Origin: Amphiscolops sp. MND2022
Taxonomy: Eukaryota
NCBI GenBank assembly: GCA_964187785.1
Contig: OZ076409.1
Coordinates: 12,216,001-12,280,000 of the forward strand
Direction of reading: 5' to 3'
Length of the DNA: 64,000 nt
Position numbers and translations under genes: made by a program. Shown piece by piece: positions 31,447-58,705 of this stretch (position 1 is its first letter; every line of letters starts with the position of its first letter). Below the pieces are notes generated by a model that saw nothing but the letters and a program-made list of their open reading frames with translations, did not search any database and was not told the origin of the DNA.

Positions 31447-32461
31447 ACAGAGAGGCGAAGCCGTGCTTTGCAAACACTTGCGCAGAAGGTTGCGAACTTT
31501 TGAAGAAAACCAAATAAGCAAAATCATACGGAGAACCAAGTGTAAAATGACATTAAAATTTCATCAATTTTACAGCGCCAAAAAATACCCGTAGGGATAC
31601 GCATAAATCTCGAAAACCATTCTTCCCTGGATAATTCTTCCCACTGGAAACAGCAAAAAACCATCTCTCTCAACAGGAAACTTTTTTAAAAAAAAACCAG
31701 AAAAATAAGGAAAAAAATCGAAAAATTTTTTGAAGGTCTCCGGTAAGTCGCATAGTGCCGAAAACCTTGAGCAGTCCTTTATGCTCGCAAAACGTTTCAT
31801 TTTCAAGTAAAAATTGAGGGGGGGGGCTTCGATGAAAACAAATTAGAAAAAAGTAGCATAGAAAAAACGCCGGTCTAAAAAATTCGGATATAGCGTGCTG
31901 GGCCTCAGAAAACCTAATTTTAAGACAAAAATTATTCATTATGAAATTTTTCACAATGTCGAAAACTGTAAAAGGGCGCCTTTTGAGATTTTTTAACAAG
32001 CATTCTGTTGCAAAATTTCAAAAAAATTGAAGGGGAACCCATTGGAGTCTTTGAAAAATTTTCGAAAAAAATGAGAATTTTTAACAGTCCCATAGTGCCG
32101 AAAAATCTGAAAGAAGGGACCCTTCGGAATTTTTTAACATTCGTTCTGTTGCAAAATATCAAAACAAATTGAAGGGAGGACCCTTTGAGGATGTTAAAAA
32201 ATTTTCGAAAAGTCTTACAAAGCCGAAAAAAGGGAGGAGTCTTGTAGTGCCAAAAAAGTGAGAAACTTCTGCTTCGGAATACTTGTAAAAAAATTTCCGC
32301 ATACTCACGGGTTCGAACACGAACCCTCTGGGTTGAAAAGCAAGCATCTTACCACTAGACCACGAATGCCTGAACTATGCGACTTGCGGGCTGAAACTAG
32401 AGTTGTCGCGCGGAAAAAAACACCCGCACTTTCCCATAACACTTGCTTATCGCAAGTGTAA
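31447..32461 (-). mobile_element. HINE family 3 (~1 kb); second copy at 41047-42056
   Basis: On the minus strand: 5' TTACACTTGCGATAAGCAAGTGT, 3' CGCAAGTGT plus hairpin GC(A/G)AAGC-ACG-GCTTCGC; two colinear copies. Confidence 0.7.
32299..32369 (-). pseudogene. Degenerate tRNA-like sequence (TTC in the anticodon position) inside a HINE
   Basis: A-box TGGTCTAGTGG, B-box GTTCGAACC, intact D stem; anticodon and T stems mispaired. Confidence 0.5.
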
Positions 32462-46684: not shown

Positions 46685-48211
46685 ATGGTTTTCAGTACGC
46701 ACGGTCCTTTTTTAAAACTAAGAAAAACAAGCCGGGACCGGCCCAAGTCGACGCCATATCTAAGGCTCAAAAATAGCATTTCACTTCAAAATGTGAAAGT
46801 ATTGGTAGTAGTAGGAGAAATCCCGTTCCGGATATAAAAAAAAATTAAGCTCGTAAAATCATGAAAATTTAGCCTTTTTTCAAGGCAAATCATCAAAAAA
46901 TAGCGTTTTTTCAAAACTAAAAAATTAACAAAATAAAAATCAATGAGCAAATTTTTTAAAAATTTTGCCATGAAGCAAAAATTCACTAACCTCTATGGTG
47001 CAATGTGGGTGGGCGGAAATAGGTCGAAGGAACGGGATCGAAAATCAGTTAGTACTCAGGTCGACATACCAAATTTTTGAATGGGATCGAAACAACTCGG
47101 ATCAAAATTTTTAAAACGTAGTCAGATATGTTCACATACCCCTAGTGCCCTGAATGCAGGAGCGAAGCGACGTGCCATATGGCTATGCCTCGATGTTGCT
47201 ACTTGGCGAAGGGAGCGAAGCGACCGAGCCATACAACAAATACGATAAAATTCGACCGCATTCCATTCGATCCCTGCAATTCGATCAAAAGGTTCGACCT
47301 CTGTCCTTTCGACCAGAAAAATTCGACCTATTTACAGCTACCCGTGCAATGTGTATGGTAATGGAGAAAATTTGTGTAGCAAAAATTTTTTGGAATGAAT
47401 TACAGCAACGCTGGCTTAAAAGTGTAACATGCAAAGGCGCTTCGCATGTGCGAATCAATTCATTTTTGCAGTGAAGTGTGCTATGCAGACAAATTGACAT
47501 TTCACACTTGAGAAAGATGAAAGAAACATCAAAGCAAATTTGCCAGAATTCGTGCCAGCCTGGCAAAAATTTTGGCAAAAATATTTTTGCTGGCAAAAAT
47601 TTCGGCAAAAAATTTTCTCAGTGACAAATTTTTGGCTCTTTTTCGCAACCGTCGAAAATGAAATTGTTCTAGTTCTTGTGAATTAAACTTAATGTTGAAA
47701 CATGGGAAAACATAATTTGCTCAATATCTCAACAGGAAATCATTTTTGAGAAAAACAACAGAAACAAAAGTTGTAGATAATTAAAAGTCACACACATTGT
47801 GTAAATGCGGCTTTTCTCTAAAATAAACCCACTAATTACTAGGTCGAAACAGGTGTAAAAATTGGGTTTTTTTCCACTTTAACAAAATTGAAATCGATGA
47901 AAAGAACCTATTGGAAGCAAAACTTAGAAAAAAAATTTCAACAAAATATTTTTCTTAAATGAAATATGCAAAGCCAGCGAACTGTATTTGTCATTCAAAG
48001 AATTTGTTGACAATTTTTGCTACCTTTAACTCACAAATAAAAAATCTTTTTTCACCGATTTTTTGAAAAAGTATAATTGAAAAATTTTTAATAAACTATT
48101 TTTTCTTTAATAAGTAGAAATGGAGTATTGTAGTATTTGTGATTCAAATTTTAAGAAGTCCTTCAAATCAGATCATTTTAAATCAGTAAAACATCTTGAA
48201 AAAATAGGTCA
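46685..48211 (+). repeat. Left inverted arm (TIR) of the Polinton-like element, including a 337-bp MITE insertion
   Basis: Starts ATGGTTTTCAGTACGCACGGTCC; colinear reverse complement of 57518-58705 with scattered mismatches. Confidence 0.85.
47007..47343. mobile_element. MULE-like MITE inserted in the left Polinton arm
   Basis: Exact 9-bp TSD GTGCAATGT; TIR GGGT...AAATAGGTCGAA; empty site present in the right arm near 58378-58386. Confidence 0.9.
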
Positions 48212-51200
48212 TTATTATTGTAAAAAGTGTAATTTATATATGCCTCGAGCAGATAAAGAATCTCATCTAAATTCAAATGAACATAAAAATAAAACCGAAC
48301 AACGAAGTGTTTGTAGTAAAGATATATCTGATACAACAAGACAATTCCAAAGTGAAATTCACCTACAAAATAATTAACGGAAGCAACAAAATAACTTTAC
48401 AAATTTCGGTAATGGAGTAGAAATAATTGTGAATGAAAATACATACATTAAACTGAAAGTAAATCCAACTGAAAATCTTGAATATCGTATGAATGAATTA
48501 TTAAGTAAAAGGTACTTTCCCCGATTTAAATATCAAATAATTTATTTGGCTAAGGTTTCAAAAACAGTTAATGGAGAAGAAAATGTATTTCACAAATGGG
48601 TTAAATCAGATTTTAATTAAAATCACACAAATCATACAATTCACAACACATTAATGCAGAAATTTGATGATGAACAATTAGAAGGATCAAGTTTTGTGTT
48701 AAACGGTATTGTCAATGTTGTATTAGAAATATACAAAGTCAATGATATTCAAACTTCTTCATACATTGAGTTGCCAGAAAAGTATAGGAATAATAAATCA
48801 ATTATAAAAATAAAAAATGATGATCAATATTGTTTTCTATGGTCTATCTTGGCGTATTTATATCCCTTTGGGAATAATAAAAACATAACATCAAAATTTT
48901 CAATGCATATGAACAGACTCAACCTAGAAGGTTTAGAATTCCCTATGAAAGATAAAGACATTCCCAAGTTTGAAAAACCTAATAACTTAAACGTAAATGA
49001 TTTTGAACTCACAAATAGTGTGTTAACACCAATCCATATAAATACGAACTATGATCAACCACAAACAGATTTATTATTATATGAAAATCACTATTGTCTA
49101 ATTACAAAATTACATTGTTTAATAAATCAAGATTCACATATGAAACATGTATGTAGAAGATGTCTAAGTGCATTTAGATCAGAATCGGTTCTACTTGATC
49201 ATATGGAAAGATGTATAAAACAACAACCAACTAAAATCAGTTTCAGTTATAAAGATCATCTGAAATTTGAAGATTATCATATGAAAGTTCCTGTACCAAT
49301 AAGAGTAGATGCAGATTTTGAATGTATTAATCATCCCACTCAAAACCCCAAAGTATTATTTAAACAAAATCCAATTGCAGTAGGATTTTATGTAATTTCA
49401 CCATTTGGAAACAAGTACAAGTCATACTTTGGAATAAAATGTACCAGAGGGAAGCAATACTGTACTAAATGGTTTGTAAAGGAAAAGTTAAAATTAGAAA
49501 AAAAGCAAAAAATATTTTAAAACAAATTTAGGACAAAAAATCCCCAAGAAGAAGATCAGTTTCAACAATCTACCATATGTTGGCTTTGCGAACAACCTTT
49601 TGCCGAAGGTGCTTCGCGTACTGAAGCTAAAGTAAGAGATCATGATCACCTAACAGGAAAATACAGAGGAGCAGCCCATTCTAAATGTAATTTAAACTGT
49701 ATACAAAAGTCATCAAGTTTTGTTCCTATATTTTTCCATAACTTTTCTGGGTATGATGGTTATCTTATATTTGAAGAACTCTTAACACAAGCTCACAAAT
49801 TGGGGTATCAACCAACAATAATTCCAAAGTCAAGGGAAAATTATGTATCAATTCAAGTAGGTTGTTTAAGATTCTTAGATTCATATCGTTTTCTAAGTAG
49901 TAGTTTAGATAAATTAGTTAATAGTTTAGACAACACACCTGTAATGGATGAAAATGGATCTACAGACAAATTATTCAAGAAGAAGTTAGCTTACCCTTTT
50001 GAATATTTTACGCTTAGTAACTTCCAAGAACCACCTAATCTAACTAAAGAAGATTCTTGGTCAACATTAACACAATCTTATCCATCAGATGATGATATAA
50101 AAAGACCCCAAGAATTAATTCAGAAGTTTAAAATTAAGAACGGACCAGAATTAACTATGTTATATTTGAAAATGGATGTTCTTATGTTGGGTGATGTATT
50201 CGAAAACTTTGTTGAAAAGTCTACTCTTATGTATGGTATTAATCCATTGTACTCATACTCAGCTCCTGGTTATACATGGAAAGCTGGTTTAATGTTGACC
50301 AATAAAAAGTTAGATTATATACGTGAAAAAGAATTATAATTACTTTTAGAAAATAAAATACGTGGAGGAATTTCAAGTGTTATGGGTGATCGTCATGTAC
50401 AAAGCACCTCCGGTGTGCAATCTGATGAAAATAAACAAATCTTATATATTGATTCAAACAATTTATATGCATGGGCAATGAGTCAATATCTTCCTACTGG
50501 TAACTTTGAAAAACTACAGCTTCCAGAAAACTACTCACTAGATCAATTAGTAGAAGATTTATAACAAATACCAGACAACATTGAATATGGTTATTTTATA
50601 GAATGTGATTTTTAATAACCTGTTGAAATTAAAGAAAAAACAAAAAACTTTCCATTGTGCCCTTCTTTAAACAAAAGCAGATCCAGACTTATTCTCAAGT
50701 TTTATGAATAATGTAAATCAAACTAATTCACAAAGCAACATCAAAACTTATGTGTGATGTAACAATAAATCGAAATATATGACACATTAAAGGGTATTTA
50801 AATTTTACATCGAAATGGGTAGGAAAATAACAAAGATACATACGATTTACACCTTCCGCCAATCACTTTGGTTAGAAAAATACATTAATCATAATACTCA
50901 AAAGAGAACCCAAGCAAGAACAAACTCTGAAAAAGACCTGTATAAATTAATGAACAATGCTTTCTTTGATAAGGTTATGGAAAATGTAAGAGAAAGAACA
51001 AATTTAGAATTCATTGATCATTCTGAAACTGATCAAATAATAAAAAGAGAATCGAAGTTAAGCTTTAAAAGTATTGTAAATTTTTACTCTGAATTCAGCG
51101 TTTATAAATATGATAAAGAAAAGTCAGTCTTTGATAAACCAATTTCTTTGGGGTTCTCTGTTTCAGAACTGAGTAAATTGTTAATGTATGAATTTTATTA

Positions 51201-51777
51201 TAAGAGTTTAGAACCACATTGGCAAAATAAAGTACATTTACATTATATGGATACAGTTTCTTTCGTTCTTAGTTTTGATGCAAACCAGGAAAATTTAATT
51301 GAGTTTTTAAAACAAAATAAAAATGAAATTGATTTTAGTGAATTAGAAAAATCTCATGAATTATATAATCCTCTTAACAAGAAAGTTACAGGAAAAATGA
51401 AAATTGAAAGAAGTCCAGTTTTAGTATTAGATAGCTTCACAGCTTTAAGATCAAAATCATATTCTTTTTCATATAGTGGAATACAGAAGTCAAAACAAAA
51501 AGGAATACAAAAAGCACCCAATAGTGAAGATTACAAGAATTCATTGTTTATATCCGAAACAACAAATGCAACAAATTGTTCAATTAGAATTAATTTACAT
51601 CAATTAAAAGTACAATACCAAAACCAACTAGCTTTGAATCCTTTTGATGATAAAAGAATGCACTTAAATTCAATAAAAAGTTTACCATGGGATAAACATA
51701 CACAAAAGTGTGACTGTCCTTGTATACTTTGTATAAAATTTACTGGTTTATATTATAAAGAACTAACCGAAAAATGT
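48120..51777 (+). pseudogene. Protein-primed family B DNA polymerase (pPolB) with N-terminal zinc fingers and an endonuclease VII/HNH insert; disrupted
   Basis: CFLWSILA, ADFEC, RDHDHLTGKYRGAAHSKCN, FHNFSGYD, RFLDSYRFL, DSNNLYAWAMSQYLP, KLMNN, YMDTVS (normally DTDS), GKMKIE; multiple stops and frameshifts. Confidence 0.92.
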
Positions 51778-51977
51778 NNNNNNNNNNNNNNNNNNNNNNN
51801 NNNNNNNNNNNNNNNNNNNNNNNNNNNNNNNNNNNNNNNNNNNNNNNNNNNNNNNNNNNNNNNNNNNNNNNNNNNNNNNNNNNNNNNNNNNNNNNNNNNN
51901 NNNNNNNNNNNNNNNNNNNNNNNNNNNNNNNNNNNNNNNNNNNNNNNNNNNNNNNNNNNNNNNNNNNNNNNNNNNNN
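51778..51977. other. Assembly gap (200 N)
   Basis: Run of n characters. Confidence 1.
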
Positions 51978-52045
51978 GCTCCGCATACAACAAAGCGAAA
52001 GGTGATATTTACAATTCTTCAGTTTGTGTATTTTTTTCTTTAAAA

Positions 52046-53083
52046 ATGAATATAAAAATTCATATAGGTTTATTATGTATGTTTCTTATTATAGTTTTAT
52101 ATATTTATTGGTATTATATTAGACCTAGACATTACGAAAAATTATACCAAAAACTAAAACAATTCAAAGGATTTCCACATTCTCATTTAACTTATCAACC
52201 TGAAGAAGAACCCCAACTCAAACCAATTACAAATGCAGCAAAGCTGGCTACGCATACAAATAGTCATATGTCAATTTTTGGTACTAGTGGGTCAGGTAGG
52301 ACTAGTTTCTTGAAATATTATTTAGATCAAACTAAATCAAATATTATAGTATTCGGTAGAGATGAGACTGAGTTTAGTGATAATTATGTACCTTTGTTGC
52401 AGTTAGAAAATATTGAAATAGAGAAACTTGCTCATAGAACGATAATTTCAGACGATGCAGGTGCATATAGAAACCTTAAAACAAAAGTAGAAGATTTGTT
52501 TAGATTTGGTAGACATCATAATATACAAGATATTTATCTTGCATACTATGCAAAGGATGTTTTTCCAGTTGTAAGAGAAAATTGTTTTAAGTTATATATT
52601 AGAATAAAAATTCCAGATTGTTTCTTTGAAACCATAATACAAACTTATTCAATCAAAAAATTAAGGTGGAAACAATACCGTGATCAGTTAGAATTTGGTG
52701 TAAATGAATTTGATACTAGATCACAAAAGTATAAAATACTCAATCAAAAGTATCAAGTAGTATATGATACAACTAAACATAAATGGAGTTCTGAAGATTA
52801 TGTAAAATATGAAAATTATTTTTTTACAGGTGAAGAATATAATAGATTAAAAGTTTTTTTAGAAGAGATGTTAGATCAAACAATTGAAAAACACCTTTTA
52901 GTGTAGCTTTATATTTTGTATTTTATTGTAAACAAAATAGAATAAAAGTAATTGAATCTAAAATAGATAATTACATCGATAGAATGCAACAACCATTGAC
53001 TTCAGACCAACTTAAAGAGGAATTTAAGAAGATAATAAAATGGAACAAGCAATTAGACACAGTAAATCTAGCATTGCAAATAG
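52046..53083 (+). pseudogene. A32/FtsK-HerA-like ATPase 1 with N-terminal transmembrane helix; frameshifted near 52900
   Basis: IGLLCMFLIIVLYIYWYYI; Walker A-like GTSGSGRT, Walker B IISDD, FRFGRHHNI, VREN. Confidence 0.75.
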
Positions 53084-53211
53084 TTTAAAATAAATAAAAT
53101 TGGGTTTGATTTCTTAGTGATTTCCGCATTCACTAAGAGCTTTTTTTGTCACTAAGCAAATAGCTTACACTTAAGAAAATATGCACTTAGTGACAATTTT
53201 TTACTAATTAA

Positions 53212-54209
53212 ATGAAGTGTTTAGTTTGAGGAAAAAGTAATGAAAAATCTGTCTGCTCCGATTGTGAGAATAAAAAAAGATGTAAAGGGTGTAATATACT
53301 GAAAACAGATTTTTACAAATATAAAAATAACAAAACAGATAGTACATGTATAAAATGTTTCAATAAAAAAGTAAAATGTGAACTCTGTAATAAGGGGTTT
53401 GAGAGAATATTTATCAAAACATTTAAAAAGATGTCCTATAGAGAAGATGCATTTAAATGATAATAAAAATGTAAACAATATTCATAGTAATATTTATAAT
53501 ATTGAAAAGTATAATAATGAAAATCATAATGATGAAAGTCATAATGATAATAATATGTTCACCAGAGGCCAGCAAAGCTGTAATCGAACATTAATAGTTG
53601 GCCCATCATTTTGTGGTAAAACTCATTTGTTATTAAACAAATTACAATTATTTCTTATTTCGGTGATATGATAAAGAAAAACAAAGACACATCATTACGA
53701 CAAGTCCTGAACAAAACTCGGATACGCAAAGCGCTTTCGGTACAGAAATAGAAGACACCGAAGGCGCGTCGCGTATAAGAGTGGAAGAAGATCTAGAAGG
53801 TAGAACAATACAAGATTTTCAAAATTGTTGTGTTGTATTTGATGATATGTTGGATAGTAATCAAAAGCTAATAGATCCATTTTTTTACTAGAGGAAGACA
53901 TAATGATTTAGATGTTTATTATTTATCACAGTCATATTTTGATTTGCCTAAACGCACCATACGCAATAATAGTAATATCATAATTTTATTCCAACAAACA
54001 TTGAAAGATGTTGAACATATATACAGAGACATTGCAGGTTTTGATATGTCTTATGATTAATTTAAAAGTTTATGTAAAAAAGCTTGGAAAGATAAATACA
54101 ACTACTTAATAATAAATAGATTAGAAGATAAAAATGGCAAAAAAATATGATATGTAATGAATCTAATCCGCAATACCAGTTCTTCAATCCACAAACTGAT
54201 CCTTTTTAG
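53212..54209 (+). pseudogene. A32-like packaging ATPase 2 with Cys-rich N-terminus; disrupted
   Basis: GPSFCGKT, VVFDDML, TRGRHNDLDVYYLSQSYFDLPKRTIRNNSNIIILF across frameshifts; several CxxC pairs from the ATG at 53212. Confidence 0.85.
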
Positions 54210-55243
54210 TAAAACTGCTTATAAGGTTTTGATGTTGATTTGTTGTAATACATTGGTATTGTAATAGTTTATCTGTAATTGCTACGATTTGTTCACTAAG
54301 CTTAGGATTATCATAACCCTCCTACTTTTTCTAACACGATTATTTTCAGTTGATCTACAAGCTCATCTGGATCAGATGGAAGGAAAACCCAAATCAAAGA
54401 TTTGCTCCGGCTAGTAGCCCGTGTATTCTGATTTAATCCACTTCCCAATTGGGAGTCTCGATAAAAGATCTCTCGATAAGGGATCTCTCGATACTTATAT
54501 TGAATAATTAAATCTTTAATGACAAAATATCTCCTTGATTTTTTATCTACATATTTCAGATTATATTACATATCATTCAGAAAAGAATGAATTAGATTCT
54601 CGTTTTGAATTTCTTTGGCTGTTTGTGTATTAGCTATGAAATATGAAAGATTTGGATCATTCAAATTATATGTGTTACCATTCTGGAAAGTCATCGTTGA
54701 ACCTTTAATTAATACTTGTTGAGGATTAGTCGGGTTAATTGTAAATAAATTTGGATTACCTTCACCGAAATGGTCACGGGTTCTAAACTAAATTGACTTT
54801 TGTTTTGGTCATTAAGCAAATTAGAAACTGTCTTAACGATACTAGAATAAACTTTGTTTGAAATAATTAGGTTATTACCAAGTTGATTATTACGGTTAGT
54901 AATTTCATCGTATTCTTTAATAGATTTTTGTAATTTTTTATTAAGGATGTTACTAGACTCTCGTATTGCTTGTACAAACCCTAGGGTTTGCTGGCCAGTG
55001 GCCCGTGTTGTAGTTTCGGTAGAATCACGTAGTGCTTGTGTTTGCTTTTCAGATTCTAGCTTGGTTTGGGTTTGGCTTTGTTTCTGTAACAGGTTCAGTA
55101 CCAGGTTCGAAAACTTCTTCTATATCGTGATGAAAGTCTTGCTTCCCAAGTTTCTCTTTCAATCTTTCAGCTTTTAATAGATTTTGATTCTTGCAATTTT
55201 TTTTTAATTTTTCTAAATCATCTCGATTATGAATTGAATACAT
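54185..55243 (-). pseudogene. Uncharacterised Polinton-type protein; disrupted
   Basis: N-terminus ...LKEKLGKQDFHHDIEEVFEP; C-terminal FLPSDPDELVDQLKII..EK.GG...EQIVAITDKLL motif of a type I recall from Polinton accessory ORFs; 3' end approximate. Confidence 0.55.
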
Positions 55244-55373
55244 AATTATTTGTTAACAAAAAATGTAAGGTATCTCTGATATAGATATTGATATCTGGAA
55301 TCAAAGATTCCTTATTATTTAAATTACAGCAAAGCCAGCGAAGCTATACTGTAAATCAAAGAATTTAACCTAA

Positions 55374-55759
55374 TTATAAACCCTTCCCTTGATGAACAAA
55401 TTTTTTAATATCAGGTGCAGTTGCAGCAATAAGTTTTGGATTTTTACTTGCTGCAGTTCCAATATTTGCTGCTATTTCGAGTGCTCTTCCGGGATCATTG
55501 AGTGTTTTCTTTCCAACATTCTTGGCTGCAGAGCCCAAATGTTCAAAAAAATTACCCAATCCTTCTGCTTGAATTGTTTGATCTGATACAATTAATGATT
55601 TATTTCTTTTTCAAGATGAACACGTACCTCCTAATAGTTTTACAGGTAATCCTGTTTTTTTTTTTAATTTTGAGTAATATCTCCACGAATATTCATGGTA
55701 GCGGAATAAAGTTTTCCACCAACACAATATGAATTCTTTTTATATTTACTAAAGCTCAT
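55374..55759 (-). pseudogene. Small basic virion-type protein (Zn-knuckle-like N-terminus, amphipathic Gly/Ala-rich C-terminus)
   Basis: MSFSKYKKNSYCVGGK...GTCSS*KRNKS...AEGLGNFFEHLGSAAKNVGKK; one frameshift and a stop. Confidence 0.55.
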
Positions 55760-55815
55760 TTATTAAGAAAAAAATATTCATTTTTTTCTAAGCAAACCTG
55801 TGGTTTGTATATTTA

Positions 55816-56855
55816 TTAAATCTTGATAATTTGAATTGTAAAGGTTAATGTTTCGGAGTTGAAATCAACTGGGTTATTGTTGTTATGCTCAAGGAAAAAT
55901 TGAATACTATCTAACCTTGTTTTGTTTATGTTTTTGTAAAAAAAAATAATATTAGGTTCTTTTTAATTTTATATCCTGGAGGAGCACTAAGATTAAAACT
56001 AAATAGTATTTGTTCTCTAATCCCGTTAACAATTGAACCATCTTCACAATCACATTTGGGATGAACTTTGTCGTTGTTATCAGGACTGGTTTTTCTGATT
56101 TATGTGTTCCTGCTTGTTAGCCCTTGTTTGTAAATCCTGAAAGGGTGTTAAGTTCTGAATAAAATAAATGGGTTTTGTGGTTTTTAAAAGTGATTTCATC
56201 GATATTGTATCTGCTTCTATGTTGAATTAAAAGTCATCAAGATCAGTATTAGAACAATTTGAAGAAAGTTTTTGATTGGTGGCATTATTTATTTTGATTA
56301 ATTCAAATGCTCCTGGTGGTATTTTAATTTCAAAGCAATCAATTACACTTCCAAATCTCACAATGTTAATAATATTTGTTTTATCTTCAATGTTTTTAGT
56401 AATTTGATCAATTATTTACTTTATTTCATTATAATATTTTACAGGAAGTATGTCATCTTCAAAATTACTATCCTTTATAAACTTTCTAAATTCTTCTATA
56501 TTAGAAGTTCCTTTATTAGAGGTTTCATATAAATGTTTTATCTTTGACACAAATTCATCTGCAGCTTTATATTCTTTTAGGTCTCTTTATGTATAAGAAA
56601 GTTCAAGTTTATTATTCTTTTCAGTAATGTTATATATGGTGTTGTATACTTCTAAACTTGTTACCCCCATCGTCCATTTTTCAGGCATTTCCAATGGAAT
56701 ATCAAAGAAAAAGATACTTTTTGTTTATTCATTTTAAATTTCAAAGTTTCTTGTGGTTTGGAATGTGTATTTTCAAAAATATCCAAATTAGATTTTGCAA
56801 TACTCAACAAAAAAGATTCTTGTTTATTATAAGTTACAAAATTTGATAGATCCTT
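55816..56855 (-). pseudogene. Minor capsid (penton-like single jelly-roll) protein; disrupted
   Basis: GVTSLEVYNTIYNITEKNNK, IPPGAFEL, KCDCEDGSIVNGIREQILFSF..SAPPGYKI, IQFFLEH...PVDFNSETLTFTIQI. Confidence 0.75.
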
Positions 56856-56858
56856 TTA

Positions 56859-57065
56859 TTAAGATGAAAATTGTTTAAATCCACTTGCGGATATGTTATT
56901 TATAAATTCTTGATATTGTTTTGATAATTTTTTCTTAATCCCATTCGGAATACAGCTTTGCAGGCTTTGCATATTATTTGCAGACTTTTTCGAATGGTTT
57001 TGATTTTGATTGGGTTGTTCTGATATGATTTTATAATGAACTGAATATATACTAACTTTCTTCAT
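56859..57065 (-). CDS. Small hypothetical protein of the element (68 aa)
   Basis: ATG abuts the protease stop (TAAATG); same strand as its neighbours. Confidence 0.4.
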   Translation of the reverse strand: MKKVSIYSVHYKIISEQPNQNQNHSKKSANNMQSLQSCIPNGIKKKLSKQYQEFINNISASGFKQFSS

Positions 57066-57507
57066 TTATTTATGATAAAATGTTTGATAGTATAAATTTA
57101 AAACTGCATTTTTAAAACCTATTTTATTTGTGAGATACAACACATACAAACAATACGCTGCACAATATCTATCATTTTTCTGAATTTGATATTCTGAACA
57201 GATACCTTTTTAATGTGATTAAGTATATTAGTTGGAGGTGGGCATCCATATGAATCAAAATATTTTTGATTTTTACCGGAGGCGCTCTGCACCGAAGGAG
57301 CTTCGCTTGTAAACATAACCCAGTGTGTTCCATTTGTTGGATGTAAGTTAACTTTACCTGATGTGGTGGTAAATTGATCATCTCTCATATATACCCCGGT
57401 TGAGTTTAATTTGAGTGTGCCAAGGATTTCTTTTATTTTTACACTAGACGTTGTTCATTTTTGAATCCATATTTATCAACAAATTCTTTGAATGACAAAT
57501 AATTCGT
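57066..57507 (-). pseudogene. Adenain-like cysteine maturation protease; frameshifted, start codon ATG>ACG
   Basis: VNLHPTNGTHWV, YFDSYGCPPP, QIQKNDRYCAAYCLY (His/Asp/Gln/Cys catalytic motifs). Confidence 0.85.
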
Positions 57508-57517
57508 TTAAGAAAAT

Positions 57518-58705
57518 TGACCTGTTTTTTCGAGGCGTTTGACTGATTTAGAATGATCTGATTTGAAGGATTTTTTAAAATATGAATCACAAATACTACA
57601 ATACTCCATTTCTATTTATTAAAGAAAAAATAGTTTAATTGAAAATTTTTCAATTATATTTTTTCAAAAAATTGGTGAAAAAAGATTTTTTATTTGTGAG
57701 TTAAAGGTAGCAAAATTCATCAACAAATTCTTTGAATGACAAATACAGCTTCGCTGGCTTTGCATAATTCACTTGAGAAAAATATTTTGTTGAAATTTTT
57801 TATTGGCTTTGCTTATAATAATTTTTTTCATCAATTTCAATTTTGTTAAAATGAAAAAAAAACAATTTTCACACCTGTTTTGACACCTGGTAATTAGTGG
57901 GTTGATTGTAGAGAAAATCCGCATTTCCAAATTGCGTGTAACTTTTAATTATCTACAACTTTTGTATCTGTTGTTTTTCTCAAAAATGACTTCCTGTTGA
58001 GATATTGGGCAAATTATGTTTTCCCATGTATTAACATTAAGTATAATTCACAAGAACTAGAACAACTTCATTCTCGACAATTGCAAAAAAGAGCCAAAAA
58101 TTTGTCACAGAGCAAATTTTTTGCCAAAATTTTTGCCAGCAAAAATATTTTTGCCAAAATTTTTGGCAGGCTGGCACGAATTCTGGCAACTTTGCTTTGA
58201 TGTTTCTTTCATATTTCTCAAGTGTGAAATGTCAATTTGTATGCACTGCACACTTCACTGCAAAAATGAATTGAATTGCACATGCGAAGCGCCTTTGGCA
58301 TGTTACACTTTTAAGCCAGCGTTGCTGTAAATCATTCCAAAAAATTTTTGCTACACTAATTTTCTCTATTACCATACACATTGCACCATAGAGGTTAGTA
58401 AATTTTTTTTTGCTTCATGGCAAAATGTTTATTAAAAAATTTGCTCATCGATTTTTATATTGTTAATATTTTAGTTGTGAAAGAACGCTATTTTTTGATG
58501 ATTTGCCTTGAAAAATTGCTAAATTTTGATGATTTTACGAGCTTAAATTTTTTCATATCCGGAACGGGATTTCTCCTACTACTACCAATACTTTCACATT
58601 TTGAAGTGAAATGCTATTTTTCAGCCTTAGATATGGCGTCGACTTGGGCCGGTCCCGGCTTGTTTTTCTTAGTTTTAAAGAAGGACCGTGCGTACTGAAA
58701 ACCAT
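57518..58705 (-). repeat. Right inverted arm (TIR) of the Polinton-like element
   Basis: Ends GGACCGTGCGTACTGAAAACCAT; mirror of the left arm. Confidence 0.85.

Follow-up and report, generated by a model that had tools for sequence, protein, structure and literature searches.

The question raised by this locus is whether short GC-rich motifs lying inside the genes of an AT-rich transposon are themselves mobile DNA and, if so, by what means they have been copied. The window, which is the whole 64,000-nucleotide stretch of Amphiscolops sp. MND2022 DNA that was analysed, contains at positions 46685-58705 a decayed copy of a Polinton (Maverick), with a GC content of 26-30% compared to 35-44% in the surrounding DNA. 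A sequence-only reading of the window had described GC-rich units of two mini-hairpins in the genes of this element and had taken them to be insertions. We found all of the listed motifs where they had been reported, and genomic copies of the element provided many filled and empty sites, which establishes that the units are insertions. It is probable, taking the statement as a whole with its mechanism included, that the motifs are gene-less, selfish micro-elements that reside within one Polinton lineage and are copied in a manner coupled to replication.

Architecture and insertion of the double-hairpin units

Once all copies had been oriented alike, three types of unit were recognised, each a pair of GC-rich mini-hairpins for which three modules are in use (GC-NNN-GC, CC-NNN-GG and CAGC-NNN-GCTG). 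Type A (TA-Y-GCRRRGC-R-CCTYCGG-TA) has a core of 16 nucleotides (nt) and adds 18 nt, and types B (TA-CAGCNNNGCTG-C-CCTCCGG-TA) and C (TA-T-GCRARGC-CAGCNNNGCTG-TA) each have a 19-nt core and add 21 nt. The inserts had previously been put at 15-18 bp, a range superseded by these core and added lengths. The motifs earlier assembled under a single type B were present, but they combine the two types called B and C here, and the supposed reversed copy near 54986 belongs to a rare fourth type, D, which is made of two longer hairpins (GGCY-ACT-RGCC and CAAAYC..GRTTTG) and has 4 matches in the genome. Stem sequences are constant, loop sequences vary, and a loop and its complement (AAA/TTT, GAA/TTC, AGA/TCT) occur in one stem in one orientation. 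Each hairpin forms a palindrome by itself, and the two ends of a unit do not make an inverted-repeat pair.

The pairing of hairpins was evaluated against 500 dinucleotide shuffles. Double mini-hairpins occurred 12 times (at 10 non-overlapping places) in 9,611 nt, compared to 0.08 +/- 0.28 (maximum 2) in the shuffled sequence. Single 7-nt mini-hairpins were not enriched, with 37 in the element (3.8 per kb versus 6.7 per kb outside), and were rejected as a signal, pairs alone being enriched; the comparison with shuffled sequence proposed by the sequence-only reading thus came out in favour of the pairs and not of the single hairpins. There was no TA-flanked single hairpin in 302 kb of Polinton DNA, and therefore the unit is always a pair.

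Insertion was evaluated in an alignment of 30 genomic copies of the polymerase region. The aligned copies fell into two groups, that of the window copy (82-90% identical among themselves) and a younger one (90-97%). Strict units were grouped into 20 site clusters; the polymerase gene accounts for 11 of these and for about 17 different insertions. Nearly all clusters were matched by a clean gap in most other copies, and many sites were singletons. Further filled and empty pairs were found in the ATPase genes, in a putative protease gene and in the non-coding inverted repeats, the right half of the sister copies being thinly sampled. The clean increments of types A, B and C always amounted to 18 nt, 21 nt or sums of these (36, 39 and 42), whether or not the DNA was coding. 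Since insertions outside genes likewise add 21 nt, the multiple-of-three length is an intrinsic property of the unit and not solely the choice of selection.

In the window, strict unit matches lie at 49603-49617, 53758-53772, 57276-57290, 57292-57306, 53562-53580, 57746-57763 and 52236-52253, and degenerate copies at 47968, 49444, 50399, 53726, 55329 and 56955. The sites are given below with the state of the copies (L numbers) to which they were compared.

47965-47986, plus strand: type C with one base deleted, in the left inverted repeat; mirrors 57744-57766
49442-49464, minus strand: decayed type B, a 21-nt insertion in the polymerase gene with TA on both sides; filled in L001-L006, empty in the other 24 copies
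49601-49620, minus strand: type A, an 18-nt insertion between the CxxC and DHDH motifs of the nuclease-like domain
50396-50416, plus strand: type A, an 18-nt insertion in the polymerase gene with TG..TG flanks; filled in L001, L002, L003 and L005, empty in 26 copies including L004
52233-52256, minus strand: type C-like motif within the gene of the A32-like packaging ATPase (52046-52903); no clean insertion relative to L033, L038 and L047
53560-53582, minus strand: type B, a 21-nt insertion (CA..TA) in the second P-loop gene; absent from L061, present in L038 and L047
53723-53743, plus strand: type A with one stem mismatch and TAC..TAC flanks; comparison with L061 not clean
53756-53775, minus strand: type A, an 18-nt insertion; absent from L061
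54389-54424, minus strand: type D, a 36-nt in-frame insertion; absent from L061
54964-54996, minus strand: type D, a 33-nt in-frame insertion in the same minus-strand gene as 54389-54424
55325-55347, plus strand: type C variant in a non-coding spacer, within a 57-nt stretch absent from L061
56953-56975, plus strand: double GCTTTGC motif at a hot spot; L054 has four tandem 18-nt units and L055 a type B unit 40 nt away
57274-57311, minus strand: two adjacent units that together lengthen the putative protease gene by 36 nt; a single 18-nt unit in L065 and none in L054
57744-57766, minus strand: type C in the right inverted repeat, TA-19-nt core-TA; filled partner of the empty paralogous site 57486-57505
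58284-58298, plus strand: type A-like motif in the outer inverted repeat; its mirror copy at 47431-47445 differs by one mismatch

The pair formed by the filled site at 57730-57770 and the empty site at 57486-57505, which had been pointed out from the window alone, is present in the sequence, and the peptides said to be added by the units are indeed in frame. The site at 49603 is a hot spot at which four different insertions occurred among the copies, in different lineages. At 54456-54485 there is an ordinary 15-nt tandem duplication (TCTCGATAA..) that is absent from L061, and therefore not every in-frame length change in this element is a hairpin unit.

Units also occur in tandem arrays with an exact 18-nt period in L062 (8-9 units), L063 and L054, and arrays with a 21-nt period were found elsewhere. 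The unit that ends the L063 array differs in variant from those beside it, and this favours repeated insertion over slippage. In L006/L066, L068 and L070, units are nested in the one-base spacer of another unit. Locus L070 (C2:71499941-71519836) has 13 type A matches about 1,360 nt apart; a 1.36-kb repeat is arrayed in tandem there between Polinton-like flanks, and each repeat contains nested units.

The flanks were evaluated at 59 site clusters, a set that includes junction artefacts from arrays: the left flank was TA in 32, and the right flank was TA in 39 and TG in 11. Among the type B matches of the whole genome, 286 of 346 had TA on both sides, and empty sites retain a single TA. The base after the left TA is a pyrimidine that is part of the unit, and by hand count it agrees with the base that follows the right TA at only about 4 of some 20 type A sites. 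Because the third base belongs to the unit and matches so seldom, the flanking repeat is 2 bp (TA) and not 3 bp. A three-base duplication was rejected, the matching of the third base not going beyond chance. The exact repeats from which it had been proposed (TAC..TAC at 53723-53743, TGT..TGT at 50396-50416 and TGTAC..TGTAC at 49440-49465) are all present. Where the empty site reads TG, the filled allele was TA..TG in three of four cases, and these unlike flanks suggest that the TA is carried in by the unit and has not been duplicated from the target. In nested copies, the host spacer contains no TA.

Confinement to Polinton DNA and the filter of coding selection

The units are located in nuclear, chromosome-scale contigs. 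Restrictive patterns matched the 1.07-Gb genome 396 times for type A, 346 times for type B and 986 times for type C, compared to 1, 0 and 7 matches of the reversed-pattern controls. Of the loci sampled, all 30 of type B and all 9 of type A had Polinton-like flanks. In the window, the 51.8 kb of host DNA contained no A, B or C unit. The generic double hairpins of the host part belong to other repeats without the A/B/C architecture. One such host repeat family, at 31455 and 41055, carries the perfect or near-perfect palindrome GCGAAGC-CGT-GCTTYGC, has no TA flanks and does not share the A/B/C architecture.

Outside this genome, public viral contigs and metagenomes gave 0, 1 (chance level) and 0 unit matches. 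A comparison of 120 homologous polymerases yielded 58 hits to unit-encoded peptides versus 7 in shuffled proteins. The peptides were found in polymerases at least 66% identical (P0001-P0087), and the 33 more distant homologues gave three hits of a chance-like kind; the examination of homologous proteins that had been suggested therefore found the distant polymerases to lack the units.

Divergence among the copies was about twice as high at third codon positions, and much of it therefore dates from a time when the polymerase was functional. Units are found inside intact polymerase open reading frames (ORFs), with two each in L017 and L012. The T of the flanking TA was a third codon base in 18 of 21 coding sites, in either orientation, compared to 42% of the available TAs (P = 5e-5), and the favoured phase encodes small polar peptides. 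The capsid gene contained no unit in 29 copies; under uniform insertion the chance of this is 0.013 (13 sites) or about 0.025 (11 clusters). Therefore, because intact ORFs carry units, one codon phase dominates and the capsid gene is free of them, selection filters the units and only copies tolerated by the proteins survive. The earlier proposal that they spread under coding selection is borne out by the retained frame, the intact polymerase ORFs and the codon-phase bias.

How the units may have spread

That these motifs are a mobile, selfish family of micro-insertions specific to this Polinton lineage seems very likely. Their copying we tentatively ascribe, with somewhat less than even confidence, to replication-coupled copy-choice on Polinton replication intermediates. 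A protein-primed, strand-displacing polymerase, or a repair polymerase, would leave its template at T-purine, copy a folded unit from another Polinton molecule and return to the template through 1-2 nt of homology. What the copies themselves establish is that new units lie next to TA (sometimes TG), that the reading frame is kept since a unit plus one dinucleotide amounts to 18 or 21 nt, and that the units are inherited as the Polinton multiplies. Copy-choice is favoured because it accounts for the restriction to Polinton DNA, for flanks that differ at TG targets, for nested copies lacking TA and for the arrays. A further prediction is precise loss, as hairpins between TA repeats would favour their own removal by slippage, and such loss may explain why the filled and empty states of some sites disagree with the copy tree (L004 at 50399 and L011 at 50326).

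These conflicts are among the observations that weigh against the reading of the units as selfish micro-elements copied during replication. They may reflect precise loss or recombination, and recombination explains them equally well; a test of local similarity gave no separation of the two. All of the copies are old, the nearest neighbours being 90-97% identical, and nothing indicates present activity; an enzyme or an intermediate of the copying was not found in this analysis. Each half of the element contained units in either orientation (roughly 15:9 and 5:7 by hand count), which speaks against a strand-specific mechanism acting on single strands; no orientation bias along the element was evident. 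The restriction to Polintons rests on 39 sampled loci of about 1,700 matches. In nearest-neighbour DNA folding, the units were no more stable than shuffled sequences (z of -0.6 to +0.8). This result and the mixed orientation count against any model driven by structure on single strands, and the spread on the displaced strand put forward in the sequence-only reading is a conjecture. GCGNAGC mini-hairpin DNA is described in the available part of PMC13037366 as extraordinarily stable and as lying outside the nearest-neighbour energy model. The modules GCGAAGC, CCGAAGG and CCGGAGG, with their C-GNA-G core, match or nearly match the stable d(GCGAAGC) motif as it is given there, but many loops (AAA, TTT, TCC, TTC) are outside the GCGNAGC rule, and special stability is known for some loops only. 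A stop-free design of the units was rejected, as openness in six frames is expected for half of random 21-mers of 70% GC. Finally, conservation at the insertion sites was not significantly lower than elsewhere in the polymerase (P = 0.28), a result that also counts against a simple view of insertion into loops only.

True transposition, in which a nuclease or transposase would cut TA with a 2-nt stagger and join the unit to give a TA target-site duplication, is the main rival, a possible but rather doubtful source of the same pattern. Candidate enzymes would be a host transposase of the Tc1/mariner type or the HNH/Endonuclease VII-like domain of the polymerase. TA is indeed present on both sides in most clean events and at the 286 type B matches mentioned above, and the ends of types B and C, TA-CAG and CTG-TA, appear to resemble Tc1/mariner termini, which adds to the case. 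The polymerase of three copies also gave a weak Endonuclease_7 match, with one unit inside the domain, but this match is below the Pfam threshold. A host transposase, however, should scatter units over the genome, and all 39 of the sampled loci were in Polinton DNA; moreover, 16-19 nt is too short for two transposase-binding inverted repeats. The rve integrase of the family would be expected to produce duplications of 6 bp and not 2 bp. Unlike flanks (TA..TG) in three of four TG-target events and nested copies without TA also do not fit a TA duplication. Nuclease insertions in Polinton polymerases have been published and favour the idea of a resident enzyme: the available part of that report (Jeong et al. 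2023, PMC10748475) describes HNH and VSR nuclease-domain insertions in the protein-primed polymerases. The polymerase studied here is similar in having an Endonuclease_7/HNH-like segment between its exonuclease motifs, and the same part of PMC10748475 contains no mention of hairpins or palindromes. A link between the nuclease and the units is speculation. On a bolder reading, the units would be a parasite of a parasite, the smallest self-propagating DNA so far observed, shaped in size for life inside genes and copied solely on Polinton genomes in replication, by the strand-displacing protein-primed polymerase together with its embedded, junction-cutting Endonuclease VII-like domain; we regard this as unlikely.

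Other classes of mobile DNA were compared as well. Of the features of Tc1/mariner miniature inverted-repeat transposable elements (MITEs), spanning terminal inverted repeats were not found, nor was host-wide dispersal at the 39 sampled loci. Tc1/mariner-type MITEs that target TA are known, among them those of Pandoravirus salinus (PMC4495683). Such MITEs share with our units the TA flanks, the non-autonomous character and residence as a mobile element within a viral genome, but they have transposase-binding terminal inverted repeats, measure at least about 50 bp and are spread host-wide, whereas the units have no such repeats, measure 16-19 nt and were found only in Polinton DNA. Features of REP/BIME and IS200/IS605 elements, namely strand-specific insertion beside a fixed tetra- or pentanucleotide and an HUH tyrosine transposase in the vicinity, were likewise lacking, as both orientations occur in both halves and the target is merely TA or TG, and Pfam scans of 28 translations contained no HUH family.

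It is improbable that the units are useful cis signals of the Polinton, kept by positive selection as binding sites for a nuclease, the terminal protein or packaging, or as protection of the displaced strand. Confinement to Polinton DNA, the strict two-hairpin architecture without solo hairpins, and conserved stems with variable loops would all suit such a function. However, no site is conserved throughout the family, close relatives differ in presence, and many sites are singletons; the number per copy varies widely, with arrays of up to 8-9 units, both orientations occur, and more distant Polinton polymerases do without them.

Still less credible, and very unlikely in our estimation, is an origin as excision footprints or deleted remnants of a larger TA-targeting transposon. 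The TA flanks and CAG/CTG-like ends would agree with it, and an unrelated MITE-like insertion does occupy the left inverted repeat (47012-47344). Footprints are typically short and heterogeneous, whereas cores of 16 and 19 nt recur here at more than 50 sites; the insertions in 302 kb included no larger element bounded by two hairpins, and exact array periods of 18 and 21 nt do not fit. Repeated deletion of ancestral segments, or artefacts of alignment or assembly, can practically be dismissed: some precise losses may have occurred at the several sites in conflict with the copy tree, but at most sites one to a few of the 30 copies carry the insertion and 21-29 are empty, a single TA is left where a unit is absent, the peptides are missing from distant homologues, and the same units are found on many chromosomes and in proteins predicted from other public assemblies.

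The reading of the units as selfish micro-elements also has precedents in other genomes. Double-hairpin elements were reportedly described from fungal mitochondria by Paquin and colleagues in 2000, and palindromic elements of about 100-150 bp, in frame within genes and encoding a recognisable peptide segment, are said to have been found in Rickettsia by Ogata and colleagues in the same year. Like the fungal elements, the Polinton units have two adjacent hairpins and insertion polymorphism between relatives, and an in-frame location, occasional in the fungal elements, is shared; the fungal elements are mitochondrial and longer. Like the Rickettsia elements, they are selfish palindromic DNA in frame and tolerated by proteins, but those elements are bacterial and reportedly about 100-150 bp, whereas the Polinton units are eukaryotic, have 16-19-nt cores and add 6-7 residues.

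By analogy, the mobile GC clusters of yeast mitochondria appear to be the closest counterparts. In the available text of Wu and Hao 2015 (PMC4478555), the clusters (GC42) have a 2-nt AG repeat, occur singly and in tandem arrays, and undergo merging and shuffling of modules; they have no gene of their own, and nearby endonucleases are suspected in their spread. To the extent covered by that text, the shared features are GC-rich hairpin units in an AT-rich genome, a 2-nt flanking repeat, arrays, module shuffling and the lack of a gene, and the analogy that had been drawn from the window sequence holds for the flanking repeat, the arrays and the shuffling. The yeast clusters are mitochondrial, mostly intergenic, roughly 30-60 nt long and flanked by AG, according to the same portion of the source, whereas the Polinton units are nuclear, mostly in genes, 16-19 nt long, flanked by TA and a multiple of three in added length, and their motifs are different from those of the yeast M/GC42 family.

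Full-text literature searches gave no account of such units in Polintons or Mavericks. To our knowledge, the double-hairpin units are among the smallest mobile-looking DNA elements, and the notable points are a host that is a virus-like transposon in an animal genome, the size of 16-19 nt and the wealth of filled and empty sites on record. Selfish palindromes within genes, previously from Rickettsia and fungal mitochondria, are now found in a virus-like transposon of an animal nuclear genome, which suggests that in-gene selfish DNA is a general fate of very AT-rich, fast-replicating genomes. Units of this size push down the lower limit for a DNA sequence that multiplies. Hundreds of Polinton copies, frozen at different times in one genome, constitute a series of filled and empty sites that allows the rates of gain and loss, the target rules and the tolerance of proteins to be measured, and that may make the mechanism testable, including the role of polymerase nuclease domains. 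The units are also sharp markers for sorting Polinton lineages and account for many length differences between Polinton proteins.

The host Polinton copy and its relatives

The element belongs to a family with at least 43 related Polinton copies in the chromosome-scale, 1.07-Gb assembly. Its main features, apart from the units, are as follows.

About 46685-48219 and 57510-58705: long terminal inverted repeats that bound the decayed Polinton copy
48120-51778, plus strand: protein-primed family B polymerase gene, with polymerase and exonuclease motifs in the translation; broken by TAA codons and a frameshift

It is identified as a Polinton because of this polymerase and of the double jelly-roll capsid, rve integrase and A32-like ATPase encoded by sister copies. 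At the ends (46685 and 58705) the long inverted repeats are present, with no matching 6-mers flanking them.

The window polymerase has 8 in-frame TAA codons in the aligned frame (48081-50690), a frameshift near 50700 and no TGA or TAG stops. A ciliate-type code (table 6) opens this frame, and was ruled out by intact ORFs of 1,199-1,263 amino acids under the standard code in six sister copies (L010, L012, L013, L017, L023 and L026); sister polymerase copies have merely 1-8 in-frame stops under that code. Therefore, the exclusive TAA stops of the window copy are AT-biased decay that mimics a ciliate-type code.

The closest ESM Atlas clusters consist of arthropod polymerases with both PF03175 and PF02945, and PF03175 was also found on the polymerase homologues P0088, P0089 and P0091. 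On the polymerase copies themselves, the Pfam search did not reach PF03175. The sole named homologue from the polymerase protein search was a spider protein of 34% identity. The Endonuclease_7/HNH-like segment (CxxC ... DHDH ... N) lies at 49560-49700 (residues about 480-525), between the exonuclease motifs; it was matched at the same place in three polymerase copies with 18-22 bits, below the Pfam cut-off of 23.6, and the family is present on 67% of the nearest Atlas cluster members, which are from arthropods.

In 29 sister copies, a gene for a 409-amino-acid double jelly-roll capsid protein directly follows the polymerase gene (PF21738 in L013, E 4e-22), and in some the rve integrase is next. 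The integrase family PF00665 was matched in L047 (E 1.4e-11) and L038 (E 2.9e-13) and as a fragment in L061. There was no capsid match in the window copy, and Pfam searches of 13 translations and two further window ORFs gave no rve match. A run of 199 N at 51779-51977 stands directly 3' of the window polymerase, at the position of the capsid gene in the sister copies; the window copy has either a deletion there or an assembly gap. Pox_A32 scored 29.8 bits in L047 and 19.9 bits, below threshold, in the window ORF at 52046-52903. Apart from the weak Endonuclease_7 and Pox_A32 matches, Pfam found nothing in the decayed ORFs of the window; the putative protease and the three segments of the putative "ATPase 2" matched no Pfam family.

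The MITE-like insertion of 330 bp at 47012-47344 occurs in the left inverted repeat only, and has no relation to the double-hairpin units. A 10-bp direct repeat stands on either side of it, and it possesses terminal inverted repeats of its own as well as GAGCGAAGCGAC motifs in its interior; another copy is found near 2214-2369. A third Polinton subfamily (L058, L059 and L041), 72-74% identical, has unit variants of its own, for example TA-CA-CAGCAGAGCTG-C-CCTTCGG, and dense clusters of alternating A and B units near the N-terminus of the polymerase.

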